Origin: Squalus acanthias
Taxonomy: Eukaryota
Length of the DNA stretch: 64,000 bases
Reading direction: 5' to 3'
NCBI GenBank assembly: GCA_030390025.1
Contig: JASTWF010000338.1
Coordinates: forward strand, 62,001 to 126,000
Shown: one piece after another, positions 1 to 51,718 of the stretch
How the letters are laid out: the number at the start of each line of letters is the position of its first letter
Position numbering within the stretch: position 1 is the first letter of the stretch
Notes under the pieces: generated by a model
Told to the model about the DNA's origin: nothing
Databases searched by the model: none
Seen by the model: the letters and a program-made list of their open reading frames with translations, nothing else
Translations under genes and position numbers: made by a program

Positions 1-35
1 AGCCCAGCTGGTTGTCTCCTTGTCCCTTTAAAGGT

Positions 36-2707: not shown

Positions 2708-4209
2708 TGCTGTGCCTGCCCTGGTAGTGTTTGATGAGACAGTGGAGAGGGAGCTTTACTCTGTATCTAACCCGTGCTGTTCCTGCCCTGGGATTGTTTG
2801 ATGGGACAGTGTCCAGGGAGCTTTACTCTGTATCTAACCCGTTCTGTACCTGCCCTGGCAGTGTTTGATGGGACAGTGTAGAGGGAGATTTACTCTGTAT
2901 CTAACCCGTGCTGTACCTGCCCTGGGAGTGTTTGATGGGACAGTGTAGAGGGAGCTTTACTCTGTATCTAACCCCTGCTGTACCTGCCCTTGGCGTATTG
3001 GATGGGACAGTGCAGAGGGAGCTTTACTCTGTATCTTACCCGTGCAGTACCTGCCCTGGGAGTTTTTGATGGGACAGTGTAGAGGGAGCTTTACTCTGAA
3101 TCTAAGCCGTGCTGTACCTGCCCTTGGAGTATTGGATGGGACAGTGTAGAAGGAGCCTTACTCTGTATCTAACCCATGCTGTACCTGCCCTGCGAGTGTT
3201 TGATGGGACAGTGCAGAGGGAGCTTTACTCTGTATCTAACCCGTGTTGTATCTGCCCTGGGAGTGTTTGATGGGACAGTGCAGAGGTAGCTTTACTCTGT
3301 ATCTAACCCGTGCTGTACCTGCCTTGGGAGTGTTTGATGGGACAGTGTTGAGGGAGCTTTACTCTGTATCTGTCGCGTGCTGTACCTGCCCTTGGAGTAT
3401 TGGATGGGACAGTGGCAGAGGGAGCTTTACTCTGTATCTAACCCGTGCTGTACCTGCCCTTGGAGTGTTTGATGGGACAGTGTAGAAGGAGCTTTACTCT
3501 GTATCTAACCCGTGCTGTACCTGCCCTGGGAGTGTTTGATGGGACAGTGTAGAGGGAGCTTTACTCTGTATCTAAGCCGTGCTGTACCTGCCTTGGGAGT
3601 GTTTGATGGGACAGTGTTGAGGGAGCTTTACTCTGTATCTGTCGCGTGCTGTACCTGCCCTTGGAGTATTGGATGGGACAGTGGCAGAGGGAGCTTTACT
3701 CTGTATCTAACCCGTGCTGTACCTGCCCTTGGAGTGTTTGATGGGACAGTGTAGAAGGAGCTTTACTCTGTATCTAACCCGTGCTGTACCTGCCCTGGGA
3801 GTGTTTGATGGGACAGTGTAGAGGGAGCTTTACTCTGTATCTAACCCGTGCTGTACCTGCCCTGGGAGTGTTTGATGGGACAGTGCAGAGGGAGCTTTAC
3901 TCTGTAGCTAACCCGTGTTGTATCTGCCCTGGGAGTGTTTGATGGGACAGTCTCGAGCGAGCTTTACTCTGTGTCAAACCCGTGCTGTACCTGCCCTGGG
4001 AGTGCTTGATGGGATAGTGTAGATGGAGCTTTACTCTGTATCTAACCCGTGCTGTTCCTGCCCTGGCAGTGTTTGATGGGACAGTGCAGTGGGGGTTTTA
4101 CTCTGTCTCTGACACCGTGCTGTACCTGCCCTGGGAGCGACTGGTTGGACAGTGCAGAGGGAGCTTTACTCTATCTAACCCGTGCTGTACCTGCCCTGGG
4201 AGTGTTTGA

Positions 4210-4602
4210 TGGACAAAATTGAGAGGTCGCACAACACCAGGTTATAGTCCAACAGTTTTATTTGAAATCACAAGCTTTCGGAGCTATCGATTTGCTCCTT
4301 CCTCAGGTGAAGTAAATTAGATACAGAATCTCCAAAGCATATATAGATGGAAAACAAAGCATGTGTACTTTACAATTGCAGACCAATAAATTAAATCATC
4401 CTGACTATCTGCCGAGGTGTGATAAAGTTAATTAAGTCAGCCAGGAAGGTACCACATCAAAGACATAGCAAGATACAACTGAGACAATGAGGTGTAGTCG
4501 CAGGGGTTCTAACGTGTCAAATGCTGCCGTCTGTATGTAAAACGAAAAGCTTTAACATTTTTTTACTTTTTTACTGGGAAAATTTTTACTTTTTTACTGG
4601 GA
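4210..4602 (-). mobile_element. Penelope-like element terminal (pLTR) fragment inserted in satellite
   Basis: Reverse complement of ~8950-9339. Contains the hammerhead motif and AATAAA. Confidence 0.85.
4268..4310 (-). ncRNA. Minimal type-I hammerhead ribozyme motif (family A)
   Basis: Minus strand: TCAC CTGAGGA A GGAGC aaatcgata GCTCC GAAA GC TT GTGA. Confidence 0.7.
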
Positions 4603-7600
4603 GTGTTTGATGGGACAGAGTAGAGGGAGCTTTACTCTGTATCTGTCGCGTGCTGTACCTGCGCTGGGAGTGTTTGATGAGACAGTGCAGAGGGAGTTTT
4701 ACTCTGTATCTAACCCGTGCTGTACCAGCCCTTGGAGTGTTTGATGGGACAGTGCAGAGGGAGCTTTAATCTGTATCTAGCGAGTGCTGTACCTGCTCTG
4801 GGAGTGTTTGATGGGACTGTGTAGAGGGAGATTTACTCTGTATCTAACCCGTGCTGTACCTGCCCTGGGAGTGTTTGATGGGACAGTGTTGAGGGAGCTT
4901 TACTCTGCATCTAAGCCGTGCTGCACCTGCCCTTGCAGTGTTTGATGGGACAGTGTAGAAGGAGCTTTACTCTGTATCTAACCCGTGCTGTAACTGCCCT
5001 GGGAGTGTTTGATGGGATAGTGTAGATGGAGCTTTACTCTGTATCTGACGCGTGCTGTACCTGCCCTGGGAGTGTTTGATGAGACAGTGTTGAGGGAGCT
5101 TTACTCTGTATTTAACCCGTGCTGTACCTGCCCTGGGTGTGTTTGATGGGACAGTGTTGAGGGAGCTTTACTCTGTATCTAACCTGTGCTGTACCTGCCC
5201 TGGGTGTGTTTGATGGGACAGTGTCGAGGGAGCTTTACTCTGTATCTAACTCGTGCTGTACCTGCCCTGGGAGTGTTTGATGGGACAGTGTAGAGGGAGC
5301 TTTACTCTGTATCTAACCCGTGCTGTAGCTGCCCTGGGAGTGTTTGCTGGGACAGTGTGGAGGGAGCTTTACTCCGTATCTAAGCCGTGCTGTACCGACC
5401 CTGGGAGTGTTTGATGGGACAGTATAGAGGGAGCTTTACTCTGGATCTAACCCGTGCTGTATCTGCCCTGCGAGTGTTTAATGGGACAGTGTAGAGGGAG
5501 CTTTACTCTGTATCTGACCCTTGCTGTACCTGCCCTGCGAGTGTTTGATGAGACAGTGTCGAGGGAACTTTACTCTGTATCTAACCCGTGCTGTATCTGC
5601 CCTGGGACTGTTTGATGGGACAGTGTAGAGGGAGCTTTACTCTGTATCTAACCCGTGCTGTACCTACCCTGGGAGTGTTTGATGGGACACTGTAGAGGGA
5701 GCTTTACTCTGTATCTAACCCATGCTGTTCCTGCCCTGGGAGTGTTTGATGGGAAAGTGTAGAGGGAGCTTTACTCTGTATCTAACCCGTGCTGTACCTG
5801 CCCTGGGAGTGATTGATGGGACAGTGTAGAGGGAGCTTTACTCTGTATCTAACCCGTGCTGTACCTGCCCTGGGAGTGTTTGATGGGATAGTGTAGAGCG
5901 AGCGTTGCTCTGCATCTAACCCGTGCTGTACCTGCCCTGGGAGTGTTTGATGGGACAGTGTAGAGGGAGCTTTCAGCTATATCTAACACGTGCTGTACCT
6001 GCCCTGGAAGTGTTTGATGGGACAGTGTAGAGGGAGCTTTACTCTGTATCTAAACCGTGCTGTCCCTGCCTTGGAAGTGTTTGATGGGACAGTTTGGAGG
6101 GAGCTTTACTCTGTATCTAACCTGTGCTGTTCCTGCCCTGGGAGTGTTTGATGGGACAGTGTAGAGGGACCTTTACTCTGTATCTAACCCGTGTTGTATC
6201 TGCCCTGGGAGTGTTTGATGGGACAGTGCAGAGGGAGCTTTACTCTATCTAACCCGTGCTGTACCTGCCCTGGGAGTGTTTGATGGGACAGTATAGAGGG
6301 AGCTTTACTCTGGATCTAACCCGTGCTGTATCTGCCCTGCGAGTGTTTAATGGGACAGTGTAGAGGTAGCTTTACTCTGTATCTGACCCTGGCTGTACCT
6401 GCCCTGCGAGTGTTTGATGAGACAGTGTCGAGGCAACTTTACTCTGTATCTAACCCGTGCTGTATCTGCCCTGGGACTGTTTGATGGGACAGTGTAGAGG
6501 GAGCTTTACTCTGTATCTAACCCGTGCTGTACCTACCCTGGGAGTGTTTGATGGGACAGTGTAGAGGGAGCTTTACTCTGTATCTATCACGTGCTGTACC
6601 TGCCCTGGGAGTGTTTGATGTGATAGTGTAGAGCGAGCGTTGCTCTGCATCTAACCCGTGCTGTACCTGCCGTGGGAGTGTTTGATGGGACAGTGTAGAG
6701 GGAGCTTTAAGCTATATCTAACACGTGCAGTACCTGCCCTGGAAGTGTTTGATGGGACAGTGTAGAGGGAGCTTTACTCTGTATCTAAACCGTGCTGTCC
6801 CTGCCTTGGAAGTGTTTGATGGGACAGTGTAGAGGGAGATTTACTCTGTATCTAACCCGGGCTGTACCTGCCCTGGAAGTGTTTGATGGGACAGTGTAGT
6901 GGGAGCTTTACTCTGTATCTAACCCGTGCTGTAACTGCCCTGGGAGTGTTTGATGGGACAGTGCAGAGGGAGCTTTACTCTGTATCTAACCCGTGCTGTA
7001 CCTGCACTGGAGTGTTTGATGGGACAGTGTTGAGGGAGCTTTACTCTGTATCTAACCCGTGCTGTACTTGCCCTGGGTGTGTTTCATGGGACAGTGTAGA
7101 GGGAGCTTTACTCTGTATCTAACCCGTGCTGTAGCTGCCCTGGGAGTGTTTAATGGGACAGTGTGGAGGGAGCTTTACTCTGTATCTAAGCTGTGCTGTA
7201 CCTGCCCTTGGAGTATTGGATGGGACAGTGTAGAAGGAGCCTTACTCTGTATCTAAACCATGCTGTACCTGCCCTGGGAGTGTTTGATGGGACAGTATAG
7301 AGGTAGCTTTACTCTGTATCTAACCCGTGTTGTATCTGCCCTGGGAGTGTTTGATGGGACAGTGTCGAGGGAGCTTTACTCTGTATCTCACCTGTGCTGT
7401 ACCTGCCCTGGGAGTGTTTGATGGGACAGTGTAGAGGGAGCTTTACTCTGTATCTAACCCGTGCTGTAGCTGCCCTGGGAGTGTTTGATGGGACAGTGTA
7501 GAGGGAGCTTTACTCTGTATCTAAGCCGTGCTATACCTGCCCTGGGAGTGTTTGATGGGACAGTGTTGAGGGAGCTTTACTCTGTATCTAACCTGTGCTG

Positions 7601-8754
7601 TTCCTGCCCTGGGAGTGTTTGATGGGACAGTGTAGAGGGACCTTTACACTGTATCTAACCCGTGTTGTATCTGCCCTGGGAGTGTTGGATGGGACAGTGT
7701 CGAAGGAGCCTTACTCTATATCTAAACCATGCTGTACCTGCCCTGGGAGTGTTTGATGGGACAGTGTAGAGGTAGCTTTACTCTGTATCTAACCCGTGTT
7801 GTATCTGCCCTGGGAGTGTTTGATGGGACAGTGTCGAGGGAGCTTTACTCTGTATCTAACCTGTGCTGTACCTGCCCTGGGAGTGTTTGATGGGACAGTG
7901 TAGAGGGAGCTTTACTCTGTATCTGAGCCGTGCTGTACCTGCCCTTGGAGTTTTGGATGGGACAGTGGCAGAGGGAGCTTTACTCTGTATCTAACCTGTG
8001 CTGTACCTGCCCTTGGAGTGTTTGATGGGACAGTGTAGAAGGAGCTTTACTCTGTATCTAACCCGTGCTGTACCTGCCCTGGGAGTGTTTGATGGGACAG
8101 TGTAGAGGGAGCTTTACTCTGTATCTAACCTGTGCTGTACCTGCGCAGGAGTGTTTGATGGGACAGTATAGAGGGAGCTTTACTCTGTATCTAACCCGTG
8201 CTGTATCTGCCCTGGGAGTGTTTGATGGGACAGTGTCCAGGGAGCTTTACTCTGTATCTAACCCGTGCTGTACCTGCCCTCGGAGTGTTTGATGGGACAG
8301 CGTAGAGGGAGCTTTACTCTGCATCTAACCCGTGCTTTACCTGCCCTGGGAGTGTTTGATGGCACAGTGTAGAGGGAGCTTTACTCTGTATCTCAGTCGT
8401 GCTGTACCTGCCCTGGGAGTGTTTGATGGGACAGTGTTGAGGGAGCTTTGCTCTGTTTTTATCCCGTGCTGTACCTGCCCTGGGAGTGTTTGATGGGTCA
8501 GTGTAGAGGGAGCTTTACTCTGTATCTAACCTGTGCTGTTCCTGCCCTGGGAGTGTTTAATGGGACAGTGTAGAGGGACCTTTACTCTGTATCTAACCCG
8601 TGTTGTAGCTGCCCTGGGAGTGTTTGATGGGACAGTGCAGAGGGAGCTTTACTCTATCTAACCCGTGCTGTACCTGCCCTGGGAGTGTTTGATGGGACAG
8701 TATAGAGGGAGCTTTACTCTGGATCTAACCCGTGTTGTATCTGCCCTGGGAGTG

Positions 8755-9372
8755 ATTCAGCCTCGGATCTGCGGGTAAGCGTTCTCCAAGGCAACCTTAG
8801 AAACACACGACAACGCAAAATCATCGAGCAGAAACTGATAGCCAAGTTCCGCACTCATGAAGACGGTCTCAATCGGGATCTTGGGTTTATGTCACGATAC
8901 ATGACGTGATCCGGACTCGAGTCGTCGTTAGCTTGTTCACAGATGTGATTCCCAGTAAAAAAGTAAAAATTTTCCCAGTAAAAAAGTAAAAATTTTAAAG
9001 CTTTTCGTTTTACATACAGACGGCAGCTTTTGACACGTTAGAACCCCTGCGACTACACCTCATTGTCTCAGTTGTATCTTGCTATGTCTTTGATGTGGTA
9101 CCTTCCTGGCTGACTTAATTAACTTTATCACACCTCGGCAGATAGTCAGGATGATTTGATTTAGTGGTCTGCAATTGTAAGGTACACATGCTTTGTTTTC
9201 TATCTATATATGCTTTGGCGATTCTGTATCTAATTTACTTCACCTGAGGAAGGAGCAATCGATAGCTCCGAAAGCTTGTGATTTCAAATAAAACTGTTGG
9301 ACTATAACCTGGTGTTGTGCGGCCTCTCAATTTTGTCCACCCCAGTCCAACACCGGCATCTCCGCATCATGA
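8755..9372 (+). mobile_element. Penelope-like element 3' end: GIY-YIG endonuclease C-terminus, 3' UTR, hammerhead and tail
   Basis: 8754-8909 translates (D)SASDLRVSVLQGNLRNTRQRKIIEQKLIAKFRTHEDGLNRDLGFMSRYMT*, matching the R...E..LI..F.T...GLN end of the PLE GIY-YIG domain. AATAAA at 9287-9292. Confidence 0.9.
9240..9281 (+). ncRNA. Minimal type-I hammerhead ribozyme motif (family A)
   Basis: Helix I TCAC/GTGA; core CTGAGGA(+A); helix II GGAGC/GCTCC; GAAA; palindromic AGCT in place of helix III; putative CUU cleavage triplet. Confidence 0.72.
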
Positions 9373-12032
9373 CCAGTGTTTTATAGGACAGTGTAGAGGC
9401 AGCTTCATCTGTATCTAACCCGTGCTGTACCTACCCTGGGAGTGTTTGATGGGATAGTGTAGAGGGAGCGTTACTCTGTATCTAACCCATGCTGTACCTG
9501 CCCTGGGAGTGTTTGATGGGACAGTGTAGAGGGAGCTTTACGCTATATCTAACCCGTGCTGTACCTGCCCTGGAAGTGTTTGATGGGACAGTGTAGAGGG
9601 AGCTTTACTCTGTATCTAAACCGTGCTGTACCTGCGTTGGAAGTGTTTGATGGGACAGTGTAGAGGGAGCTTTACTCTGTATCTAACCCGTGCTGTACCT
9701 GCCCTGGAAGTGTTTGATGGGACAGTGTAGAGGGAGCTTTAATCTGTATCTAACCCGTGCTGTACCTGCCCTGGGAGTGTTTGATGGGATAGTGTAGAGC
9801 GAGCGTTGCTCTGCATCTAACCCGTGCTGTACCTGCCCTGGGAGTGTTTGATGGGACAGTGTTAAGGGAGCTTTCAGCTATATCTAACACGTGCTGTACC
9901 TGCCCTGGAAGTGTTTGATGGGACAGTGTAGAGGGAGCTTTACTCTGTATCTAAACCGTGCTGTCCCTGCCTTGGAAGTGTTTGATGGGACAGTTTGGAG
10001 GGAGCTTTACTCTGTATCTAACCTGTGCTGTTCCTGCCCTGGGAGTGTTTGATGGGACAGTGTAGAGGGACCTTTACTCTGTATCTAACCCGTGTTGTAT
10101 CTGCCCTGGGAGTGTTTGATGGGACAGTGCAGAGGGAGCTTTACTCTATCTAACCCGTGCTGTACCTGCCCTGGGAGTGTTTGATGGGACAGTATAGAGG
10201 GAGCTTTACTCTGGATCTAACCCGTGCTGTATCTGCCCTGCGAGTGTTTAATGGGACAGTGTAGAGGTAGCTTTACTCTGTATCTGACCCTTGCTGTACC
10301 TGCCCTGCGAGTGTTTGATGAGACAGTGTCGAGGCAACTTTACTCTGTATCTAACCCGTGCTGTATCTGCCCTGGGACTGTTTGATGGGACAGTGTAGAG
10401 GGAGCTTTACTCTGTATCTAACCCGTGCTGTACCTGCCCTGGGAGTGTTTGATGGGATAGTGTAGAGCGAGCGTTGCTCTGCATCTAACCCGTGCTGTAC
10501 CTGCCGTGGGAGTGTTTGATGGGACAGTGTAGAGGGAGCTTTAAGCTATATCTAACACGTGCAGTACCTGCCCTGGAAGTGTTTGATGGGACAGTGTAGA
10601 GGGAGATTTACTCTGTATCTAAACCGTGCTGTCCCTGCCTTGGAAGTGTTTGATGGGACAGTGTAGAGGGAGATTTACTCTGTATCTAACCCGGGCTGTA
10701 CCTGCCCTGGAAGTGTTTGATGGGACAGTGTAGTGGGAGCTTTACTCTGTATCTAACCCGTGCTGTAACTGCCCTGGGAGTGTTTGATGGGACAGTGCAG
10801 AGGGAGCTTTACTCTGTATCTAACCCGTGCTGTACCTGCCCTGGAGTGTTTGATGGGACAGTGTAGAGGGAGCTTTACTCTGTATCTAACCCGTGCTGTA
10901 CTTGCCCTGGGTGTGTTTCATGGGACAGTGTAGAGGGAGCTTTACTCTGTATCTAACCCGTGCTGTAGCTGCCCTGGGAGTGTTTAATGGGACAGTGTGG
11001 AGGGAGCTTTACTCTGTATCTAAGCTGTGCTGTACCTGCCCTTGGAGTATTGAATGGGACAGTGTAGAAGGAGCCTTCCTCTGTATCTAAACCATGCTGT
11101 ACCTGCCCTGGGAGTGTTTGATGGGACAGTATAGAGGTAGCTTTACTCTGTATCTAACCCGTGTTGTATCTGCCCTGGGAGTGTTTGATGGGACAGTGTC
11201 GAGGGAGCTTTACTCTGTATCTCACCTGTGCTGTACCTGCCCTGGGAGTGTTTGATGGGACAGTGTAGAGGGAGCTTTACTCTGTATCTAACCCGTGCTG
11301 TAGCTGCCCTGGGAGTGTTTGATGGGACAGTGTAGAGGGAGCTTTACTCTGTATCTAAGCCGTGCTATACCTGCCCTGGGAGTGTTTGATGGGACAGTGT
11401 TGAGGGAGCTTTACTCTGTATCTAACCTGTGCTGTTCCTGCCCTGGGAGTGTTTGATGGGACAGTGTAGAGGGACCTTTACACTGTATCTAACCCGTGTT
11501 GTATCTGCCCTGGGAGTGTTGGATGGGACAGTGTAGAGGGAGCTTTACTCTGTATCTAACCCGTGCTGTAGCTGCCCTGGGAGTGTTTGATGGGACAGTG
11601 TAGAGGGAGCTTTACTCTGTATCTAAGCCGTGCTATACCTGCCCTGGGAGTGTTTGATGGGACAGTGCAGAGGGAGCTTTACTCTGCATCTAACCCGTGC
11701 TGTACCTGCCCTGGGAGTGTTTGATGGGACAGTGTAGAGGGAACTTTACTCTGTATCTAACCCATGCTGTACCTGTCCTGGGAGTGTTTGATGGGACAGT
11801 GTAGAGGGGGCTTTACTCCGTATCTAACCCGTGCTGCAGCTGCCCTGGGAGTGTTTGATGGGACAGTTTAGAGGGAGCTTTACTCTGCAACTAACCTGTG
11901 CTGTTCCTGCCCTGGGAGTGTTTGATGGGACAGTGTAGAGGGGGCTTTACTGTGTATCTAACCCGTTCTGTACCTGCCCTGGGAGTGTTTGATGGGAAAG
12001 TATCGAACGAGCATTACTCTGTCTGTTACCCG

Positions 12033-12385
12033 GTAAAAAAGTAAATTTTTTAAAGCTTTTCGTTTTACATACAGACGGCAGCTTTTGACACGTTAGAACC
12101 CCTGCGACTACACCTCATTGTCTCAGTTGTATCTTGCTATGTCTTTTGATGTGGTACCTTCCTGGCTGACTTAATTAACTTTATCACACCTCGGCAGATA
12201 GTCAGGATGATTTAATTTATTGGTCTGCAATTGTAAAGTACACATGCTTTGTTTTCCATCTATATATGCTCTGGCGATTCTGTATCCAATTTACTTCACC
12301 TGAGGAAGGAGCAATCGATAGCTCCGAAAGCTTGTGATTTCAAATAAAACTGTTGGACTATAACCTGGTGTTGTGCGACCTCTCA
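12033..12385 (+). mobile_element. Penelope-like element pLTR fragment inserted in satellite
   Basis: Near-identical to ~8978-9329. Confidence 0.85.
12296..12337 (+). ncRNA. Minimal type-I hammerhead ribozyme motif (family A)
   Basis: Same sequence as 9240-9281. Confidence 0.7.
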
Positions 12386-15300
12386 GTGTTAGATGGGACA
12401 GCATAGAGGGAGCTTTACTCTGTATCTAACCCGTGCTGTACCTGCCCTGGGAGTGTTTGATGGGACACTGTCGAGCGAGCTTTACTCTGTATCTAACCCG
12501 TGCTGTACCTGCCCTGGGAGTGTTTGATGGGACAGTGCAGAGGGAGCTTGACTCTGTATCTAACCCGTGCTGTATCTGCCCTGGGAGTGTTTGATGGGAC
12601 ACTGTCGAGCGAGCTTTACTCTGTATCTAACCCGTGCTGTCCCTGCCCTGGGAGTGTTTGAGGAACAGTGTAGAGGGAGCTTTACTCTGTATCTAAGCCA
12701 TGCTAAACTGCCCTGGGAGTGTTTGATGGGACAGTGTTGAGGGAGCTTTACGCTGTATCTAACCTGTGCTGTACCTGTTCTGGGAGTGTTTGATGGGACA
12801 GTATAGAGAGGGCTTTACTCTGTATCTGACCCGTGCTGTACCTGCCCTGGAAGTGTTTGATGGGACAGTGTAGAGGGAGCTTTACACTGTTTATAACCCG
12901 TGGTGTACCTGCCTGGGACTGTTTGATGGGACAGTGTAGAGAGAGTTTACTCTGTATCTAACCTGTGCTGTACCTGCCCTGGGACTGTTTGATGCGAAAG
13001 TGTAGAGGGAGCGCTACCCTGTTTATAACCCGTGTTGTACCTGCCTGGGACTGTTTGATGGGACAGTGTAGAGAGAGTTTTACGCTGTATCTAACCTGTG
13101 CTGTACCTGTGCTGGGAGTGTTTGATGGGACAGTGTAGAGGGGGCTTTACTCATATCTAACCCCTGCTTTATCTGCCCTGGGAGTGTTAGATGGGACAGC
13201 ATAGAGGGAGCTTTACTCTGTATCTAACCCGTGCTGTACCTGCCCTGGGAGTGTTTGATGGGACACTGTCGAGCGAGCTTTACTCTGTATCTAACCCGTG
13301 CTGTACCTGCCCTGGGAGTGTTTGATGACAGTGCAGAGGGAGCTTGACTCTGTATCTAACCCGTGCTGTATCTGCCCTGGGAGTGTTTGATGGGACGGAA
13401 TAGAGGGAGCTTTACTGTGGATCTAACCCGTACTGTACCTGCCCTGGGAGTGTTTGATGGGACAGTGCAGAGGGAGCTTTACTCTGTATATAACCCGTGC
13501 TGTACCTGCCCTGGGAGTGTTTGATGGGACAGTGTAGGGGGAGCTTTACTCTGTATCTAACCCATGCTGTACCTGCCCTGGGAGTGTTTGATGGGACAGT
13601 GTTGAGGGAGCTTTACTCTGTATCTGACCAGTGCTGTCCCTGCCCTGGGAGTGTTTGATGGGACAGTGTAGAGGGAGCTTTACTCTGTATCTGACCCGTG
13701 TTGTACCTGCCCTGGGAGTGTTTGATGGGACAGTGTAGAGGGAGCTTTACTCTGTATCTAACCCGTGCTGTACCTGCCCTGGGAGTGTTTGATGGGACAG
13801 TGCAGAGGGAGCTTTACTCTGTATCTAACCCGTGCAGTACCTGCCCTGGGACAGTGCAGAGGGAGCTTTACTCTGTATCTAACCCGTGCTGTACCTGCCC
13901 TGGGAGTGTTCGATGGGACTGTGAAGAGGGAGCTTTGCTCTGTATCTAACCTGTGCTGTACCTGCCCTGGGAGTGTTTGATGGGACAGTGTAGAGGGAGC
14001 TTTACTCTGTATCTAACCCGTGCTGTACCTGCCCTGGGAGTGTTTGAGGAACAGTGTAGAGGGAGCTTTACTCTGTATCTAAGCCATGCTAAACTGCCCT
14101 GGGAGTGTTTGATGGGACAGCGTAGGGGGAGCTTTACCCTGTTTATAACCCGTGGTGTACCTGCCTGTGACTGTTTGATGGGACAGTGTAGAGAGAGTTT
14201 TACGCTGTATCTGACCCGTGCTGTACCTGCCCTGGAAGTGTTTGATGGGACAGTGTAGAGGGGGCTTTACTCTGTATCTAACCCGTGCTTTAACTGCCCT
14301 GGGAGTGTTAGATGGGACAGCATAGGAGGGAGCTTTACTCTGTATCTAACCAGTGCTGTACCTGCCCTGGGAGTGTTTGATGGGACAGTGCAGAGGGAGC
14401 TTTACTCTGTGTTTAACCCATGCTGTACCTGACCTGGGAGTGTTTGATGGGACAGTTTAGAGGGAGCTTTACTCTGTATCTGACCCGTGTTGTACCTGCC
14501 CTGGGAGTGTTTGATGGGACAGTGCAGAGGGAGCTTTACTCTGTATCTGACCCATGTTGTACCTGCCCAGGGAGTGTTTGATGAGACAGTGTAGAGGGAG
14601 CTTTACTCTGCATCTAACCCGTGCTGTACCTGCCCTTGCAGTGTTTGATGGGACAGTGCAGAGGGAGCTTTACTCTGTATCTAACCCATGCAGTACCTGC
14701 CCTGGGACTGTTTGATGGGACAGTGCAGAGGGAGCTTTATTCTGTATCTAACCCGTGCTGTACCTGCCCTGGGAGTGTTTGATGGGACAGTGTAGAGGGA
14801 GCTTTACTCTGTATCTAACCCGTGCTGTACCTGCCCTGGGAGTGTTTGATGGGACAGTGTAGAGGGAGCTTTACTCTGTATCTGACCCGTGTTGTACCTG
14901 CCCTGGGAGTGTTTGATGGGACAGTGCAGAGGGAGCTTTACTGTGTATCTGACCCATGTTGTACCTGCTCAGGGAGTGTTTGATGAGACAGTGTAGAGGG
15001 AGCTTTACTCTGTATCTAACCCGTGCTGTACCTGCCCTGGGACTGTTTGATGGGACAGTGTAGAGGGAGCTTTACCCTGTTTATAACCCGTGATGTACCT
15101 GCCCTGGGACTGTTTGATGGGACAGTGTAGGGGGAGCTTTACTCTGTATCTAACCCATGCTGTACCTGCCCTGGGAGTGTTTGATGGGACAGTGTTGAGG
15201 GAGCTTTACTCTGTATCTGACCAGTGCTGTCCCTGCCCTGGGAGTGTTTGATGGGACAGTGTAGAGGGAGCTTTACTCTGTATCTGATCTGTATTGTACC

Positions 15301-18300
15301 TGCCCTGGGACAGTGCAGAGGGAGCTTTACTCTGTATCTAACCCGTGCTGTACCTGCCCTGGGAGTGTTTGATGGGACTGTGAAGAGGGAGCTTTGCTCT
15401 GTATCTAACCTGTGCTGTACCTGCCCTGGGAGTGTTTGATGGGACAGTGTAGAGGGAGCTTTACTCTGTATCTAACCCGTGCTGTACCTGCCCTGGGAGT
15501 GTTTGATGGACAGTGTAGAGGAGCTTTACTCTGTATCTAGCCAGTGCTGTACCTGCCCTGGGAGTGTTTGATGGGACAGCGTAGAGGGAGCTTTACCCTG
15601 TATCTGATCCGTGTTGTACCTGCCTGGGCTGTTTGATGGACAGTGCAGAGGGAGCTTTACGCTGTATCTAACCGTGCTGTACCTGCCCTGGGAGTGTTTG
15701 ATGGGACTGTGAAGAGGAGCTTTGCTCTGTATCTACCCGTGCTGTACCTGCCCTGGAGTGTTTGATGGGACAGTGTAGAGGGAGCTTTACTCTGTATCTA
15801 ACCCGTGCTGTACCTGCCCTGGGAGTGTTTGATGGACAGTGTAGAGGGAGCTTTACTCTGTATCTAAGCCAGTGCTGTAACTGCCCTGGGAGTGTTTGAT
15901 GGGACAGGCAGAGGGGAGCTTTACTCTGTTTCTAACCCGTGCTGTACCTGCCTGGGATGTTTGATGGGACAGTGTAGAGGGAGCTTTACTCTGTATCTAA
16001 CCCGTGCTGTACCTGCCCTGGGAGTGTTTGATGGGACAGTGCAGAGGGAGCTTTACTCTGTATCTGACCCGTGCTGTACCTGCCCTGGAGTGTTTGATGG
16101 ACAGTGTAGAGGGAGCTTTACTCTGTATCTAACCCGTGCTGTATCTGCCCTGGGAGTGTTTGATGGGACAGCTTCGAAGGGAGCTTTACTCTGTATCTAA
16201 CCAGTGCTGTACCTGCCCTGGGAGTGTTTGATGGGACAGTGCAGAGGGAGCTTTACTCTGTATCTAACCATGCTGTACCTGCCCTGGGATATGTTTGATG
16301 GGACAGTGTAGAGGGAGCTTTACTCTGTATCTGACCCGTGTTGTACCTGCCCTGGAGTGTTTGATGGGACAGTGCAGAGGGAGCTTTACTCTGTATCTGA
16401 CCCATGTTGTACCTGCCCAGGGAGTGTTTGATGAGACAGTGTAGAGGGAGCTTTACTCTGCATCTAACCCGTGCTGTACCTGCCCTTGCAGTGTTTGATG
16501 GGACAGTGCAGAGGGAGCTTTACTCTGTATCTAACCCATGCAGTACCTGCCCTGGGACTGTTTGATGGGACAGTGTAGAGGGAGCTTTACGCTGTATCTA
16601 ACCTGTGCTGTACCTGTCATGGGAGTGTTTGATGGGACAGTATAGAGGGGGCTTTACTCTGTATCTAACCCGTGCTTTATCTGCCCTGGGAGTGTTAGAT
16701 GGGACAGCATCGGAGGGAGCTTTACTCTGTATCTAACCAGTGCTGTACCTGCCCTGGGAGTGTTTGATGGGACAGTGTAGAGGGAGCTTTACTCTGTATC
16801 TAACCCGTGCTGTACCTGCCCTGGGAGTGTTTGATGGGACAGTGTAGAGGGAGCTTTACTCTGTATCTGACCCGTGCTGTACCTGCCCTGGGAGTGTTTG
16901 ATGGGACAGTGTAGAGGGAGCTTTACTCTGTATCTTACCCTGTGCTGTACCTGCCCTGGGAGTGTTTGATGGGACAGTGCTAGAGGGAGCTTTACTCTGT
17001 ATCTAACCCGTGCTGTACCTGCCCTGGGAGTGTTTGATGGGACAGTGTAGAGGGAGCTTTACTCTGTATATAACCCGTGCTGTACCTGCCCTGGGAGTGT
17101 TTCATGGGACAGTGCAGAGAGAGCTTTACTCTGTATCTAACCCGTGCTGTACCTGCCCTGGGAGTGTTTGATGGGACAGTGCAGAGGGAGCTTTACTCTG
17201 TATCTAACCCGTGCTGTACCTGCCCTGGACGTGTTTGATGGGACAGTGCAGAGGAGCTTTACTCTGTATCTAACCCGTGCTGTACCTGCCCTGGGAGTGT
17301 TTGATGGGACAGTGCAGAGGGAGCTTTGCTCTGTATATAACCTGTGCTGTACCTGCCCTGGTAGTGTTTCATGGGACAGTGCAGAGAGAGCTTTACTCTG
17401 TATCTAACCCGTGCTGCAGCTGCCCTGGGAGTGTTTGATGGGACAGTGCAGAGGGAGCTTTACCCTGTTTATAACCCGTGATGTACCTGCCCTGGGACTG
17501 TTTGATGGGACAGTGTAGGGGGAGCTTTACTCTGTATCTAACCCATGCTGTACCTGCCCTGGGAGTGTTTGATGGGACAGTGTTGAGGGAGCTTTACTCT
17601 GTATCTGACCAGTGCTGTCCCTGCCCTGGGAGTGTTTGATGGGACAGTGCAGAGGGAGCTTTACTCTGTATCTGATCCGTATTGTACCTGCCCTGGGACA
17701 GTGCAGAGGGAGCTTTACTCTGTATCTAACCCGTGCTGTACCTGCCCTGGGAGTGTTTGATGGGACTGTGAAGAGGGAGCTTTGCTCTGTATCTAACCTG
17801 TGCTGTACCTGCCCTGGGAGTGTTTGATGGGACAGTGTAGAGGGAGCTTTACTCTGTATCTAACCCGTGCTGTACCTGCCCTGGGAGTGTTTGAGGGACA
17901 GTGTAGAGGGAGCTTACTCTGTATCTAAGCCATGCTAAACTGCCCTGGGAGTGTTTGATGGGACAGGTAGAGGGAGCTTTACCCTGTTTATACCCGTGGT
18001 GTACCTGCCTGTGACTGTTTGATGGGACAGTGTAGAGAGAGTTTTACGCTGTATCTAACCGGTGCTGTACCTGTCCTGGGAGTGTTTGATGGGACAGTTT
18101 CGAGAGGGCTTTACTCTGTATCTGACCCGTGCTGTACCTGCCCTGGAAGTGTTTGATGGGACAGTGTAGAGGGGGCTTTACTCTGTATCTAACCCGTGCT
18201 TTATCTGCCCTGGGAGTGTTTGATGGGACAGCATAGGAGGGAGCTTTACTCTGTATCTAACCAGTGCTGTACCTGCCCTGGGAGTGTTTGATGGGACAGT

Positions 18301-19968
18301 GCAGAGGAAGCTTGACTCTGTGTCTAACCCATGCTGTACCTGACCTGGGATATGTTTGATGGGACAGTTTAGAGGGAGCTTTACTCTGTATCTGACCCGT
18401 GTTGTACCTGCCCTGGGAGTGTTTGATGGGACAGTGCAGAGGGAGCTTTACTCTGTATCTGACCCATGTTGTACCTGCCCAGGGAGTGTTTGATGAGACA
18501 GTGTAGAGGGAGCTTTACTCTGCATCTAACCCGTGCTGTACCTGCCCTTGCAGTGTTTGATGGGACAGTGCAGAGGGAGCTTTACTCTGTATCTAACCCA
18601 TGCAGTACCTGCCCTGGGACTGTTTGATGGGACAGTGTAGAGGGGGCTTTACTCTGTATCTAACCCTGTGCTTTATCTGCCTGGGAGTGTTTGATGGGAC
18701 AGCATAGGAGGGGAGCTTTACTCTGTATCTAACCAGTGCTGTACCTGCCCTGGGAGTGTTTGATGGGACAGTGCAGAGGAAGCTTGACTCTGTGTCTAAC
18801 CCATGCTGTACCTGACCTGGGATATGTTTGATGGGACAGTTTAGAGGGAGCTTTACTCTGTATCTGACCCGTGTTGTACCTGCCCTGGGAGTGTTTGATG
18901 GGACAGTGCAGAGGGAGCTTTACTCTGTATCTGACCCATGTTGTACCTGCCCAGGGAGTGTTTGATGAGACAGTGTAGAGGGAGCTTTACTCTGCATCTA
19001 ACCCGTGCTGTACCTGCCCTTGCAGTGTTTGATGGGACAGTGCAGAGGGAGCTTTACTCTGTATCTAACCCATGCAGTACCTGCCCTGGGACTGTTTGAT
19101 GGGACAGTGTAGAGGGAGCTTTACGCTGTATCTAACCTGTGCTGTACCTGTCATGGGAGTGTTTGATGGGACAGTATAGAGGGGGCTTTACTCTGTATCT
19201 AACCCGTGCTTTATCTGCCCTGGGAGTGTTAGATGGGACAGCATCGGAGGGAGCTTTACTCTGTATCTACCAGTGTTGTACCTGCCCTGGGAGTGTTTGA
19301 TGGGACAGTGTAGAGGGAGCTTTACTCTGTATCTAACCTTGCTGTACCTGCCCTGGGAGTGTTTGATGGGACAGTGTAGAGGGAGCTTTACTCTGTATCT
19401 AGACCCGTGCTGTACCTGCCCTGAGTGTTTGATGGGGACAGTGTAGAGGGAGCTTTACTCTGTATCTAACCAGTGCTGTACCTGCCCTGGGAGTGTTTGA
19501 TGGGACAGTGTAGAGGGAGCTTTACTCTGTATCTAACCGTGCTGTACCTGCCCTGGGAGTGTTTGATGGGACAGTGTAGAGGGGCTTTACTCTGTATCTA
19601 ACCCGTGCTTGTATCTGCCCTGGGAGTGTTAGATGGGACAGAGGAGAGGGAGCTTTACTCTGTATCTAACCCGTGCTGGACCTGCCCTGGGAGTGTTTGA
19701 TGGGACAGTGTAGAGGGAGCTTTACTCTGTATCTAACCCGTGCTGTACCTGCCCTGGGAGTGTTTGATGGGACAGTGTAGAGGGAGCTTTACTCTGTATC
19801 TAACCCGTGCTGTACCTGCCCTGGGAGTGTTTGATGGGACAGTGTAGAGGGAGCTTTACTCTGTATCTAACCGTGCTGTACCTGCCCCTGGGAGTGTTTG
19901 ATGGGACAGTGTAGAGGGAGCTTTACTCTGTATCTAACCGTGCTGTACCTGCCCTGGGAGTGTTTGAT

Positions 19969-20177
19969 GGACAAAGTGTGAGGAGGTCGCACAAAACCAG
20001 GTTATTGCCCAACAGTTTTATTGAAATCACAAGCTTTCGGAGCTATGATTTGCTCCTTCCTCAGGTGAAGTTAAATAGATACCGTAAGCTTGTGATTTCA
20101 AATAAAACTTGTTTGGACTATACCTGGTGTTGTGGGACCTCTCAATTTTGTCCACCCCAGTCCTCACCTGCATCTCC
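19969..20177. mobile_element. Inverted pair of Penelope pLTR fragments (minus ~19969-20072, plus ~20076-20177), indel-rich
   Basis: The first half matches 4211-4325 and the second half matches 9272-9363, both with many small indels. Confidence 0.7.
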
Positions 20178-23100
20178 CTGGGAGTGTTTGATGGGACAGT
20201 GTAGAGGGAGCTTTACTCTGTTTATAACCGTGCTGTACCTGCCCTGGGAGTGTTTGATGGGACAGTGTAGAGGGAGCTTTACTCTGTATCTAACCTGTGC
20301 TGTACCTGTCATGGGAGTGTTTGATGGGACAGTTTAGAGGAGGGCTTTACTCTGTATCTGACCCGTGCTGTACCTGCCCTGAGAGTGTTGATGGGACAGT
20401 GTAGAGGGAGCTTTACTCTGTATCTAACCCGTGCTGTATCTGCCCTGGCAGTGTTTCATGGGACAGGGCATAGAGGAGCTTTACTCTGTATCTAACCCGT
20501 GCTGTACCTGCCCTGGGAGTGTTTGATGGGACAGTGCAGAGGGAGCTTTACTCTGTATAAACCCGTGCTGTACCTGACCCTGGTTAGTTTTATGGGACAG
20601 TGTAGAGGGAGCTTTACTCTGTATCTAACCCGTGTGTACCTGCCCTGGGAGTGTTTGATGGGACAGTGTGCAGAGGGAGCTTTACTCTGTATATGACCCA
20701 GTGATGTACCTGCCCTGGGAGTGTTTGATGGACAGGTGTAGAGGGAGCTTTACTCTGATCTAACCCGTGCTGTACCTGCCCTGGGGAGTGTTTGATGGGA
20801 CAGTGTAGAGGGAGCTTTACTCTGTATCTAACCCGTGCTGTACCTGCCCTGGGAGTGTTTGATGGGACAGTGTAGAGGGAGCTTTACTCTGTATCTAACC
20901 GTGCTGTACCTGCCCTGGGACAGTGCAGAGGGAGCTTTACTCTGTATCTAACCGTGCTGTACCTGCCCTGGGAGTGTTTGATGGGACAGTGTAGAGGGAG
21001 CTTTACTCTGTATCTAACCCGTGCTGTACCTGCCCTGGGAGTGTTTGATGGGACAGTGTAGAGGGAGCTTTACTCTGTATCTAACCCGTGCTGTACCTGC
21101 CCTGGGAGTGTTTGATGGGACAGTGTAGAGGGAGCTTTACTCTGTATCTAACCCGTGCTGTACCTGCCCTGGGAGTGTTTGATGGGACAGTGTAGGGGAG
21201 CTTTACTCTGTATCTAACCCGTGCTGTACCTGCCTGGGAGTGTTTGATGGGACAGTGTAGAGGGAGCTTTACTCTGTATCTAACCGTGCTGTACCTGCCC
21301 TGGGAAGTGTTTGATGGGACAGTGTAGAGGGGCTTTACTCTGTATCTAACCCGTGCTGTACCTGCCCTGGGAGTGTTTGATGGGACAGTGTAGAGGAGCT
21401 TTACTCTGTATCTAACCAGTGCTGTACCTGCCTGGGAGTGTTTGATGGGACAGTGTAGAGGGAGCTTTACTCTGTATCTGACCCCGTGCTTGTACCTGCC
21501 CTGGAGTGTTTGATGGGACAGCTGTTTAGAGGGAGACTTTACTCTGTATTCTACCCGTGCTGTACCTGCCCTTGCAGTGTTTTGATGGGACAGTGCAGAG
21601 GAGCTTTACTCTGTATCTAACCCCGTGCTGTACCTGCCCTGGGAGTGTTTGATGGGACAGTGTAGAGGAGCTTTACTCTGAATATAACCCGTGCTGTACC
21701 CTGCCCTGGCAGTGTTTGATGGGACAGTGCAGAGTGAGCTTTACTCTGTATCTAACCATGCTGTCCTGCCCTGGGAAGTGTTTGATGGGACAGTGCAGAG
21801 GGAGCTTTACTCTGTATATAACCGTGCTGTACCTGCCCTGGGAGTGTTTGATGGGACAGTGTAGAGGGAGCTTTACTCTGTATCTAACCCGTGTGTACCT
21901 GCCCTGGGAGTGTTTGATGGACAGTGTAGAGGAGCTTTACTCTGTATCTAACCGTGCTGTACCTGCCCTGGGAGTGTTTGATGGGACTGTGAAGAGGGAG
22001 CTTTACTGCTGTATCTAACCGTGCTGAACCTGCCCTGGAGTGTTTGATGGGACATGTAGAGGGAGCTTTACTCTGTATCTAACCCGTGCTGTACCTGCCC
22101 CTGGGAGTGTTTGAGGGACAGTGTAGAGGAGCTTTACACTGTATCTAACCGTGCTGTAACTGCCTGGGAGTGTTTGATGGGACAGTGTAGGGGAGCTTTA
22201 CTCTGTATCTAACCCGTGCTGTACCTGCCCTGGAAGTGTTTGATGGGACAGTGTAGAGGAGTTTTAATCTGTATCTAACCGTGCTGTACCTGCCCTGGGA
22301 GTGTTTGATGGGACAGTGCAGAGGGAGCTTTACTCTGTATCTGACCCATGTCTGTACCTGCCCTGGGAGTGTTTGATGGGACAGTGTAGAGGGAGCTTTA
22401 CTCTGTATCTAACCCGTGCTGTACCTGCCCTGGGAGTGTTTGATGGGACAGTATAGAGGGAGCTTTTCTCTGTATCTAACCCGTGCTGTACCTGCCCTGG
22501 GAGTGTTTGATGGGACAGTGCAGAGGGAGCTTTACTCTGTATCTAACCCGTGCTGTACCTGCCCTGGGAGTGTTTGATGGGACAGTGTAAAGGGAGCTTT
22601 ACTCTGTATCTAACCTGTGCTGTACCTGCCCTGGGAGTGTTTGATGGGACAGTGTAGAGGGAGCTTTACTCTGTATCTAACCCGTGCTGTACCTGCCCTG
22701 GGAGTGTTTGATGGGACAGTGAGAGAGCTTTACTCTGTATCTAACCGTGCTGTACCTGCCTTGGAGTGTTTGATGGGACAGTGTAGAGGGAGTTTACTCT
22801 GTATCTAACCCGTGCTGTACCTGCCCTGGAGTGTTTGATGGGACAGTGTAGAGGGAGCTTTACTCTGTATCTAACCCGTGCTGTACCTGCCCTGGGAGTG
22901 TTTGATGGGACAGTGTGAGGGAGCTTTACTCTGTATCTAACCCGTGCTGTACCTGCCCTGGGAGTGTTTGATGGGACAGTGTAGAGGGAGCTTTACTCTG
23001 TATCTAACCCGTGCTGTACCTGCCCTGGGAGTGTTTGATGGGACAGTGTAGAGGGAGCTTTACTCTGTATCTAACCCGTGCTGTACCTGCCCTGGGAGTG

Positions 23101-26100
23101 TTTGATGGGACAGTGTAGAGGGAGCTTTACTCTGTATCTAACCCGTGCTGTACCTGCCCTGGGAGTGTTTGATGGGACAGTGTAGAGGGAGCTTTACTCT
23201 GTATCTAAACCGTGCTGTACCTGCCCTGGGAGTGTTTGATGGGACAGTGTAGAGGGAGCTTTACTCTGTATCTAACCCGTGCTGTACCTGCCCTGGGAGT
23301 GTTTGATGGGGACAGTGTAGAGGGAGCTTTACTCTGTATCTAACCCGTGCTGTACCTGCCCTGGGAGTGTTTTGATGGGACAGTGTAGAGGGAGCTTTAC
23401 TCTGTATCTAACCGTGCTGTACCTGCTGGGAGTGTTTGATGGGACAGTGTAGAGGGAGCTTTACTCTGTATCTAACCCGTGCTGTACCTGCCCTGGGAGT
23501 GTTTGATGGGACAGTGTAGAGGGAGCTTTACTCTGTATTTAACCCGTGCTGTACCTGCCCTGGGAGTGTTTGATGGGACAGTGCAGAGGGAGCTTTACTC
23601 TGTATCTAACCCGTGCTGTACCTGCCTGGGAGTGTTTGATGGGACAGTGTAGAGGGAGCTTTACTCTGTATTTAACCCGTGCTGTACCTGCCCTGGGAGT
23701 GTTTGATGGGACAGTGTAGAGGGAGCTTTACTCTGTATCTAACCCGTGCTGTACCTGCCCTGGGAGTGTTTGATGGGACAGTGTAGAGGGAGCTTTACTC
23801 TGTATCTAACCCCGTGCTGTACCTGCCCTGGGAGTGTTTGATGGGACAGTGTAGAGGGAGCTTTACTCTGTATCTAACCCGTGCTGTACCTGCCCTGGGA
23901 GTGTTTGATGGGACAGTGCAGAGGGAGCTTTACTCTGTATCTAACCGTGCTGTACCTGCCCTGGGAGTGTTTGATGGGACAGTGTAGAGGAGCTTTACTC
24001 TGTATCTAACCCGTGCTGTACCTGCCCTGGGAGTGTTTGATGGGACAGTAAGAGGGAGCTTTTACTCTGTATCTAACCCGTGCTGTACCTGCCCTGGGAG
24101 TGTTTGATGGGACAGTGTAGAGGGAGCTTTACTCTGTATCTAACCCGTGCTGTACCTGCCCTGGTGTGTTTGATGGGACAGTGTAGAGGAGCTTTACTCT
24201 GTATCTAACCCGTGCTGTACCTGCCCTGGGAGTGTTTGATGGGACAGTGTAGGGGAGCTTTACTCTGTATCTAACCGTGCTGTACCTGCCCTGGGAGTGT
24301 TTGATGGGACAGTGCAGAGGGAGCTTTCTCTGTATCTAACCGTGCTGTACCTGCCCTGGGAGTGTTTTTGATGGGACAGTGTAGAGGGAGCTTTACTCTG
24401 TATCTAAACCTGCTGCTGGAGTTTGATGGGACAGTTTAGAGGAGCTTTACTCTGTATTCTAACCCGTGCTGTACCTGCCCTGGGAGTGTTTGATGGGACA
24501 GTGTAGAGGGAGCTTTACTTTGTATCTAAACCCGTGCTGTACCTGCCCTGGGAGTGTTTGATGGGACAGTGTAGAGGGAGCTTTACTCTGTATCTAACCC
24601 GTGCTGTACCTGCCTGGGAGTGTTTGATGGGACAGTGTGAGGGAGCTTTACTCTGTATCTAACCTGTGCTGTACCTGCCCTGGGAGTGTTTGATGGGACA
24701 GTGTAGAGGGAGCTTTACTCTGTATCTACCCGTGCTGTACCTGCCCTGGGAGTGTTTGATGGGACAGTGCAGAGGGAGCTTTACTCTGTATCTAACCCGT
24801 GCTGTACCTGCCCTGGGAGTGTTTGATGGGACAGTGTAGAGGGAGCTTTACTCTGTATCTAACCGTGCTGTACCTGCCCTGGGAGTGTTTGATGGGACAG
24901 TGTAGAGGGAGCTTTACTTTAATCTAACCCATGCTGTACCTGCCCAGGGAGTGTTTGATGGGACAGTGTAGAGGGAGATCTTACTCTGTATCTAACCCGT
25001 GCTGTCCTGCCCTGGGAGTGTTTGATGGGACAGTGTAGAGGGAGCTTTACTCTGTATCTAAACCGTGCTGTACCTGCCTGGAGTGTTTGATGGGACAGTG
25101 AGAGGGAGCTTTACTCTGTATCTAACCCGTGCTGTACCTGCCTGGGAGTGTTTGATGGGACAGTGTAGAGGGAGCTTTACTCTGTATTTAACCCGTGCTG
25201 TACCTGCCTGGGAGTGTTTGATGGGACAGTGTAGAAGGAGCTTTACTCTGTATCTAACCCGTGCTGTACCTGCCCTGGGAGTGTATGATGGGACAGTGTA
25301 GAGGATGCTTTACTCTGTATCTAACTCCTGCTGTACTGCCCTGGGAGTGTTTGAAGGACAGTGTAGACGAGCTTCACTCTGTATCATAACCCTTGCTGTA
25401 ACTGCCCTGGGAGTGTTTAGATGGGGACAGCTGTAGGGGGTCTTTTCTCTGTTTATAACCCTGTGTTTACTGCCTGGGGAGCTGTTTGATGGGACAGTGT
25501 AGAGAGAGTTTTACTCTGTTATTACCCGTGCTGTACCTGCCCTGGAGAGTTTTTGATGGGACAGTGTAGAGGGGGCTTTACTCTTAATCTAACCCTTGCT
25601 GTAACTGCCCAGGATGTGAGTGTTAGTGGGGACCGCTGTAGAGGAGCTTACTCTGTATCTACCAGTGCTGTACCTTCCCTGGAGTGTTTGATGGGACAGT
25701 GCTAGAGGGAGCTTTACTCTGTGTTTAACCCAGTGCTGTCCCTTACCTGGGAGTGTTTGATGGGACTGTTAGAGGGAGCTTACTCTGTATCTACCCGATG
25801 CTGTACCTGCCTAGAAGTGTTTGATGGGACAGTGTAGAGGGAGTTACTCTGTATCTAACCCGTGCTGTGCCTGCCCTGGAGTGTTTGATGAGACAGTGTA
25901 GAGGGAGCTTTACTCTGATTTAACCCGTACTGTACCTGCCTGGGAGTGTTTGGATGGGGACAGTGTAGAGGGAGCTTTACTCTGTATCTAACCCCGATAC
26001 TGTACCTTCCCTGGGAGTGTTTGATGGGGACAGTGTAGAGGGAGCTTTACTCTGTATCTAACCCTGCTGTACCTTCCCTGGGAGTGTTTGATGGGACAGT

Positions 26101-26423
26101 GAAGAGGGAGCTTTACTCTGTATCTAACCCGTGCTGCACCTGCCCTGGACTGTTTGATGGGACAGTGTAGAGGGAGCTTTACTCTGTATCTAACCCGTGC
26201 TGTTCCTTCCCTGGGAGTGTTTGATGGGACAATGTAGAGGGATCTTTACTCTGTAGCTAACCCATGCTGTACCTGCCCTGGGAGAATTTGATGGGACAGT
26301 GTAGAGGGGGCTTTACTCTGTATCTAACCCGTGCTGTACTGCCCTGGGAGTTCTTTGATGGGACAGTGCAGAGGGATGCTTTACTTGTATTTACTCGTGC
26401 TGTACCTGCCCTGGATTTGTTTG

Positions 26424-26650: not shown

Positions 26651-26942
26651 CTGTCCTTCATTCTGCCAGTAGATTTCACACTTCATTCAGCCTTAATCTG
26701 TCACATTAACACCACCTCTAGCCTTGCATATCTCTTAATGTCTCTTAATGTCTCTTCATCTCCTCCTTTGTTCCTTTATCCCCTTCCCCTTTTCCCAGCT
26801 TTACCCTGGCCTTAAATCTATTTGATTTCCAGCTCTTCCCAGTTCTGATGAAAGGTCATCGACCTGAAACGTCAACTCTCTTGCTCTCTCCACGGATGCT
26901 GCCTGGCCTGCTGAGTTTTTCCAGCGTTTTCTGTTGTTATCT
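26651..26942 (+). mobile_element. Penelope-like element 3' UTR/terminus, second family
   Basis: Pyrimidine-rich tract followed by CTGATGAAAGGTCATCGACCTGAAACGTCAAC...GATGCTGCCTGGCCTGCTGAG...CCAGC; paralog at 35581-35682. The Penelope assignment rests on the hammerhead and on recalled similarity. Confidence 0.65.
26841..26877 (+). ncRNA. Minimal type-I hammerhead ribozyme motif (family B)
   Basis: AGTT CTGATGA A AGGTC atc GACCT GAAA C GTC AACT: helix I AGTT/AACT, helix II AGGTC/GACCT, palindromic ACGT, canonical GUC triplet. Confidence 0.75.
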
Positions 26943-27400: not shown

Positions 27401-27536
27401 AGTGAATGGTGAATGAGTTTCTGTGATCCCATTGAGAGAAAATTCATCAATAATTCACACAGAAACCCAAGTGCACGGGCACTCTGCCATGGTTCAGTCC
27501 TGGATGTGATTAATAACAGAATCCAAACCCCTGCAG

Positions 27537-39875: not shown

Positions 39876-39893
39876 TTTATATTTATTTTAAAG

Positions 39894-47064: not shown

Positions 47065-47173
47065 CCAGCCCATAATGAGCAGGACTGAGGGAGGTTGGTT
47101 GCTAGGCACTGCAGTGATGTCATAAAGCAGGGCCATTCAGCCCAGCTGGGCGTCTCCTTGTCCCTTTAAAGGT
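47065..47173 (+). promoter_or_regulatory. Second copy of the RFX/CRE-like cassette
   Basis: GTTGCTAGGCAC 47098-47109, TGATGTCA 47115-47122; abuts the inverted satellite. Confidence 0.4.
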
Positions 47174-51325: not shown

Positions 51326-51718
51326 TGGACAAAATTGAGAGGTCGCACAACACCAGGTTATAGTCCAACAGTTTTATTTGAAATCACAAGCTTTCGGAGC
51401 TATCGATTTGCTCCTTCCTCAGGTGAAGTAAATTAGATACAGAATCTCCAAAGCATATATAGATGGAAAACAAAGCATGTGTACTTTACAATTGCAGACC
51501 AATAAATTAAATCATCCTGACTATCTGCCGAGGTGTGATAAAGTTAATTAAGTCAGCCAGGAAGGTACCACATCAAAGACATAGCAAGATACAACTGAGA
51601 CAATGAGGTGTAGTCGCAGGGGTTCTAACGTGTCAAAAGCTGCCGTCTGTATGTAAAACGAAAAGCTTTAACATTTTTTTACTTTTTTACTGGGAAAATT
51701 TTTACTTTTTTACTGGGA
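51326..51718 (-). mobile_element. Penelope pLTR fragment with hammerhead at 51384-51426 (duplicate of 4210-4602)
   Basis: Same sequence and junctions. Confidence 0.85.

Follow-up and report, generated by a model that had tools for sequence, protein, structure and literature searches.

Minimal hammerhead motifs in a shark satellite most probably belong to the end repeats of truncated Penelope-like insertions

In the 64,000-nt stretch of Squalus acanthias DNA analysed here (the window), minimal type I hammerhead motifs very probably sit in the end repeats (pLTRs) of a shark Penelope-like element (PLE), likely Neptune, four copies of which, all 5'-truncated, lie within a 67-bp satellite and were likely inserted there by target-primed reverse transcription. 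The anatomy of the motifs, the end of the element's ORF, the truncation, an inverted copy, the tail and the duplication of three of the copies are shown by the analysis.

Results

Hammerhead motifs in the window

Read letter by letter, the motif at 9240..9281 (plus strand) pairs TCAC with GTGA in helix I, runs through the core CTGAGGA and one extra A (A9251), and builds a helix II of GGAGC/GCTCC that closes an 8-nt loop with ATCGAT inside; its 3' side consists of GAA, a palindromic AGCT (9273-9276) and U17. The core of a minimal hammerhead (min-HHR), CUGANGA ... GAA ... UH plus helices I and II, is present, as are the min-HHR traits of an extra base at 9/10.1 (A9251), a G10.1-C11.1 pair (G9252-C9269) and the palindrome AGCT. 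The predicted fold contains helices I and II (-12.2 kcal/mol) and the predicted cut falls after 9277 at a CUU triplet, a slower cleavage triplet than GUC, while AATAAA, a putative signal only, stands 10 nt past this cut at 9287..9292 on the plus strand. A preliminary description of this DNA had given the same layout in each of its parts (helix I, core, extra A, helix II, AGCT and the downstream AATAAA) and had also placed the predicted cuts correctly, after 9277 and, 3056 nt further on, after 12333.

A specific pattern matched five times in the window and never in 100 shuffles, and a generic minimal-hammerhead descriptor gave eight matches, where dinucleotide-matched random sequence (n=100) gave 0.02 on average and never more than 1. 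The hammerhead-shaped motifs are real, and chance is excluded as their source. Rfam covariance models run against the whole 64 kb returned no hammerhead match at E<=1 and one unrelated weak match.

Seven of the eight descriptor matches make up the main family, at 4268-4310 (minus), 9240 (plus), 12296 (plus), 20027 (minus), 51384-51426 (minus), 55821 (plus) and 58944 (plus). Four of these copies share one sequence, a further two carry an additional A in loop II, and 20027 is without the ATCGAT palindrome; an earlier count of six clean copies is thus one short of the family, albeit fair once the palindrome-less 20027 is set aside. The loop II palindrome is not common to all copies, being missing from 20027 and from related motifs elsewhere. 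As a candidate dimer interface it was tried and rejected: it yields the lowest-energy dimer, but one without helix III, and it is absent from 20027 and from loci L005, L007 and L009. The eighth match is a second-family minimal hammerhead motif (26841..26877, plus strand) with an ACGT palindrome and a GUC triplet, a single copy outside the satellite and beside an assembly gap, in which every helix letter differs from the first family.

Four truncated insertions and their duplicates

Inserts were delimited by masking the 67-bp satellite, after which 0.2-0.6 kb remain around each motif. The longest is insertion 2 (8755..9374, plus), a 5'-truncated Penelope-like copy comprising ORF end, pLTR, hammerhead and tail, with AGTG on either side, a flank that within a tandem array fits target-site duplication and deletion alike. 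Insertion 3 (12026..12385, plus; hammerhead 12296-12337) consists of pLTR only and is 96.7% identical to insertion 2, and insertion 1 (4210..4602, minus), also pLTR only, holds a hammerhead whose loop is longer by one base (4268-4310). Insertion 4 (19968..20178) is a head-to-head inverted pair with two arms, of which the minus arm (19968-20081) has the hammerhead 20027-20068, the plus arm (20082-20178) begins within the hammerhead, and both 3' ends point outward; its RNA is predicted to form a long hairpin of about -81 kcal/mol that would bury the 3' half of the motif. Insertions 1, 2 and 3 recur as duplicates at 51326..51718 (minus; hammerhead 51384-51426), 55336..55955 (plus; hammerhead 55821-55862) and 58674..59033 (plus; hammerhead 58944-58985). 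The motifs at 51384, 55821 and 58944 being duplicates of those at 4268, 9240 and 12296, the family represents four independent insertions.

The 3' part is common to all inserts and the points of 5' loss differ (8755, 8950, 8971 and 9226 in insertion 2 coordinates; on that scale, the 3' ends are 9329, 9339 (twice), 9363 and about 9371). Beyond the commonest 3' end lies a tail extension of about 32 nt (9340..9371, plus strand), present in insertion 2, in part in the plus arm of insertion 4 and in none of the remaining inserts; contig depth falls after 9370 in four of four mapped runs, and a scan of viral contigs for the tail gave 0 matches. Three marks of PLEs are all seen here: 5' truncation at variable points, an inverted copy alongside and a tail of 30-40 bp on one side only. 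The pLTR also contains an exact 23-bp tandem duplication (8949-8996), whose CCC(A/G)GT motif matches the satellite and is the point of 5' truncation in two of the four inserts. A tblastn search for a full pLTR-ORF-pLTR element found no full copy within the window.

The open reading frame and the clade of the element

The last codons and stop of an ORF for a reverse transcriptase with a GIY-YIG nuclease occupy 8757..8909 on the plus strand, where 45 of 49 residues (92%) are identical to residues 595-643 of P0002, a 643-aa shark protein with a reverse transcriptase domain, the match lying at its C-terminus. In insertion 2 the motif thus lies 3' of where a PLE ORF ends, and the link to PLEs drawn in the preliminary description holds. 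Used as a query, the 49-residue ORF end matched 21 of 29 candidate proteins, and those named are all from sharks (Heptranchias, Mustelus, Scyliorhinus). The GIY-YIG Pfam cut-off is passed by a shorter homologue, P0005, whereas P0002 itself has no GIY-YIG score but contains the GIY-YIG core motif. Of five homologues examined (P0002 and four others), four match an expression for that core in which two cysteines are included. A CX4CXXC linker precedes the nuclease in all five, including P0002 (residue 505), and is a property of these relatives, the window itself holding only 49 aa. According to Craig et al. (2021, PMC8557442), a CX2-5CXXC linker is a mark of Neptune and Nematis and is absent in Penelope/Poseidon. 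The element appears to be an EN+ PLE, and likely Neptune, a clade placement drawn from the 92% relative.

Several shark gene models (P0003, P0019, P0021 and P0008; models of XRCC5, FAM210B, FAM204A and a pyrin-domain protein) end in the PLE nuclease C-terminus, and are likely annotation chimeras or exonised fragments. Elsewhere in the window, at 27745-37983, at least six LINE fragments, which we take to be CR1-like, are clustered on both strands, with reverse transcriptase frames of up to 538 aa and RVT_1 in both of the two scanned.

The satellite and the duplicated block

All four insertions lie in a plus-strand array of about 354 units of the 67-bp satellite (2708..26414), the unit of which is without a hammerhead; the consensus of 142 full-length units contains no hammerhead core. 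This array has four motifs per about 354 units rather than a hammerhead in at least two consecutive units, the arrangement by which retrozymes are recognised. A second array of about 107 units (39890..47068, minus) has neither insertion nor hammerhead, and further satellite (50161..64000, plus) lies within a duplicated block. Positions 32-2750 recur at 47486-50203 with 99.8% identity, and identity is 99.5-99.7% between the 51k, 55k and 59k inserts and their counterparts at 4k, 9k and 12k, with satellite blocks that vary in their number of whole units. Overall, the block 32-15000 is 99.5-99.8% identical to 47486-64000, as either a true duplication or an uncollapsed haplotype.

Other features of the repeat landscape were observed alongside. 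A 107-108-bp tandem repeat at 32-355, 38789-39213 and 47170-47808 (three, four and six units) precedes or borders each satellite block, and the array at 39.9-47.1 kb, between two of these repeats, runs on the opposite strand. Shortened 54-bp units with a 13-bp deletion at one phase occur at 13793, 15252, 17640, 20863, 60443 and 62303, and their recurrence is a marker of higher-order amplification. The first array ends at an assembly gap of 227 N (26424-26650), and the satellite near 19.8-26.4 kb has many one-base indels, possibly sequencing noise. By eye, 2590-2710 and 27530-27640 (minus) resemble decayed C2H2 zinc-finger repeats, and the satellite array begins at the first of these.

Occurrence and variation in other sequence data

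Parts of the insert were found in 20 of 24 sequencing runs, all of them as contigs, and 18 contained half or more of its words. Four DNA-type runs from three coded organisms were mapped, taking sequences of at least 85% identity and without reading depth as copy number, and all 30 bins of the insert were covered in each of the four, which points to a widespread family. The within-motif variants listed are one change in helix II, A9254G, by which an A-U pair becomes G-U, one change in the loop, A9257G, and indels on the loop side at 9256; among the variants listed, none falls in the core or at U17. The variable sites listed number two in the 42 nt of the motif, compared with about 29 across 485 nt upstream of it; the motif is not measurably more conserved than its surroundings, and in so young a family its conservation is hardly informative.

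Beyond the family, the helices are kept with other letters in locus L009 and in the motif at 26841, both of which were picked by pattern or descriptor. A degenerate pattern found 13 loci in metagenome contigs, none of which has the 67-bp satellite; three pass the descriptor, and the other ten were set aside. Two of the 13 (L005 and L007, one family) match P0002 by tblastn at 48-51%, and L007 has a nuclease end, about 790 nt and then a hammerhead on the same strand, which is the order of the shark insert.

Junctions in the satellite unit

With the A of AGTGTTTGA in the 67-bp unit taken as phase 0, the 3' junctions of plus-oriented inserts lie at 0, 0/1 and -7 to -5, and those of minus-oriented inserts at +8 to +11 twice; the 5' junctions lie at +4, about +48 and 0 to -5. 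The five 3' junctions are all confined to 19 of the 67 unit bases, for which a uniform null gives 0.036 (five junctions), 0.099 (four events) or 0.004 (strand-aware), with windows chosen post hoc. Among the joints listed, run X5 contributes a further 3' joint (9330 to 8684) that also lies at phase 0 but is made of different letters, together with 5' joints at +11 and +50; two of the three element-satellite joints listed from the mapped runs carry uncertain intervening sequence. Adding the X5 3' joint brings the plus-end null to 0.001-0.006, post hoc and for the listed joints only. The tail was also considered as an RNA guide to the satellite, and this candidate was rejected: in local alignments against 1000 shuffled units, p was 0.86 and 0.56 for the tail, 0.23 for the body and 0.34 for the whole.

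Discussion

Minimal hammerheads in the pLTRs of metazoan PLEs were reported in 2014 (Cervera and De la Pena, PMC4209133), mostly as solo copies from truncated elements and, in fishes, in Xena, Poseidon and Neptune elements. The motifs described here are like those in being type I with a 4-bp helix I, an extra base before helix II and a G10.1-C11.1 pair, in having a palindromic 15.2-16.2 without helix III and in occurring mostly as solo copies; they are unlike the cases in that report in their 5-bp helix II (7-8 in Schistosoma), CUU triplet and satellite setting. Sharks are not named in its results or discussion, and its supplements may list shark examples. The element shares with Neptune/Nematis EN+ PLEs a C-terminal GIY-YIG nuclease with core cysteines and a CX2-5CXXC linker, as seen in the 92% relative, as well as the 5' truncation, inverted copy and one-sided tail of EN+ PLEs (PMC8557442); the repeat bias described there for Neptune and Nematis concerns microsatellites such as (TA)n, whereas the host repeat here is a 67-bp unit. 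There is also a likeness to the hammerhead satellites and non-LTR retrozymes known from newts, axolotl and coral, which are type I, are set in tandem repeats, are thought to be derived from PLE pLTRs and occur in one cartilaginous fish sampled (PMC7229834; bioRxiv 10.64898/2026.07.22.740005). In those systems, however, every unit (51-972 bp) has a ribozyme (PMC7229834; bioRxiv 10.64898/2026.07.22.740005), whereas the 67-bp unit is without one and the spacing of the motifs is 3-8 kb.

A comparison for the mechanism is PAc, the Poseidon element of Anolis carolinensis, which nicks and extends both strands and starts reverse transcription at two internal sites bounding its tail (Frangieh et al. 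2024, PMC11167929). Like PAc, the shark element has a hammerhead upstream of the reverse-transcription starts and two main 3' ends a tail apart, and double-strand nicking and extension would fit the head-to-head hairpin at 20k; PAc differs in being a Poseidon without the cysteine linker, and its own ORF start lies inside its hammerhead (PMC11167929). Target-primed reverse transcription would likely have placed the PLE copies into the satellite, with the GIY-YIG nuclease nicking the two strands close to the unit's T-run (AGTGTTTGA), and such nicking would account for clustered junctions. In an intact tandem element, where the motif would serve if it serves at all, AGCU pairing between two motifs would create helix III, and the precursor RNA would then be cut weakly, probably aided by the element's protein. 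This accords with the in vitro behaviour of minimal hammerheads, for which monomers gave no cleavage and dimers weak cleavage (PMC4209133), so that the dimer idea of the preliminary description agrees with the literature, and with the PAc hammerhead, which cleaves only with the element's protein and is dispensable for insertion in vitro (PMC11167929). In the solo, promoter-poor fragments seen here the motifs would be passengers that do nothing for the satellite.

The clustering of 3' junctions by phase and strand, together with the X5 joint at phase 0, raises the question of whether the element truly prefers one phase of the unit, with nicks flanking AGTGTTTGA, either as a weak T-rich by-product or as true satellite targeting. 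Such a preference would add to the main explanation, and a bias of insertion toward repeats has been proposed for the Neptune linker (PMC8557442). We hold it only tentatively, at somewhat below an even chance: there are four events, the windows were picked after the data had been seen, both minus junctions share CCA microhomology that may have caused their likeness, and the 7-kb array at 39890-47068 has no insertion. Furthermore, the unit has just two T-runs, and a weak preference like that of Anolis PAc for ATT (PMC11167929) would already cluster junctions. The simplest reading, and a likely one, is that a weak endonuclease preference met a repeated target. In the mainly open-access papers covered, nothing relevant was found on a satellite-targeting PLE or a 67-bp shark satellite. 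Microhomology also bears on the idea that the array acquired the inserts as copies of pLTRs located elsewhere, made by recombination or repair and not by retrotransposition, since TCCCAG occurs at the junction at 4597-4602, CCC is found near 12030, and the satellite stretch before insertion 3 is degenerate. Short microhomology at truncated 5' ends is, however, usual for retroelements, and each insert retains its 3' end and loses its 5' end, while the copy at 20k has two outward 3' ends, the pattern expected of PLE integration; a recombinational origin is very unlikely.

The preliminary description had further inferred that the copies at 9240 and 12296 could pair in a read-through satellite RNA and free a defined linear or circular RNA; this would be 3056 nt long and released in the manner of a retrozyme. 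The two copies do lie on one strand with intact cores and identical sequence, minimal hammerhead dimers cleave weakly in vitro (PMC4209133), the Anolis PLE hammerhead cleaves with protein help (PMC11167929), protein help could change the folding of the shark motifs, and circular RNAs in animals are reported to arise from tandem hammerhead repeats. They sit, however, in separate truncated insertions with unlike 5' and 3' ends, AATAAA follows the first cut by only 10 nt, and the 3-kb segment is duplicated only within the larger block with unique flanks and not as a unit of its own. Retrozymes by definition have a ribozyme in each tandem unit, whereas here the unit is without one, the first array having four motifs in about 354 units and the 107-unit array 0. 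Folding predictions also favour other states, as the dimer with a 4-bp helix III is placed at -21.9 kcal/mol, less stable than two monomers (-24.4) and far less so than a dimer that swaps strands at loop II and has no helix III (-35.3). Xenopus hammerhead dimers were inactive in vitro in eight of nine cases, and the Anolis RNA-seq described by Frangieh et al. has no reads starting or terminating at the PAc hammerhead cut site (PMC11167929). The inferred pairing is thus unsupported, and such a satellite RNA is extremely unlikely. It is just as improbable that the PLE family homes to one satellite phase while pairs of its hammerheads excise satellite-filled RNAs (here of 3056 nt) that its own reverse transcriptase reinserts, spreading the satellite as a composite retrozyme.

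Penelope-like insertion by target-primed reverse transcription into the satellite accordingly remains the preferred reading. If paired solo pLTRs could excise the intervening DNA and make it mobile, satellites would gain a way to spread, of which nothing here gives a sign. The element adds one more PLE family to those already known to have a minimal hammerhead, and as it stands this matters little. If the phase bias is real, the tandem array would read out where a Neptune-type nuclease nicks each strand, a little-studied aspect of these elements.
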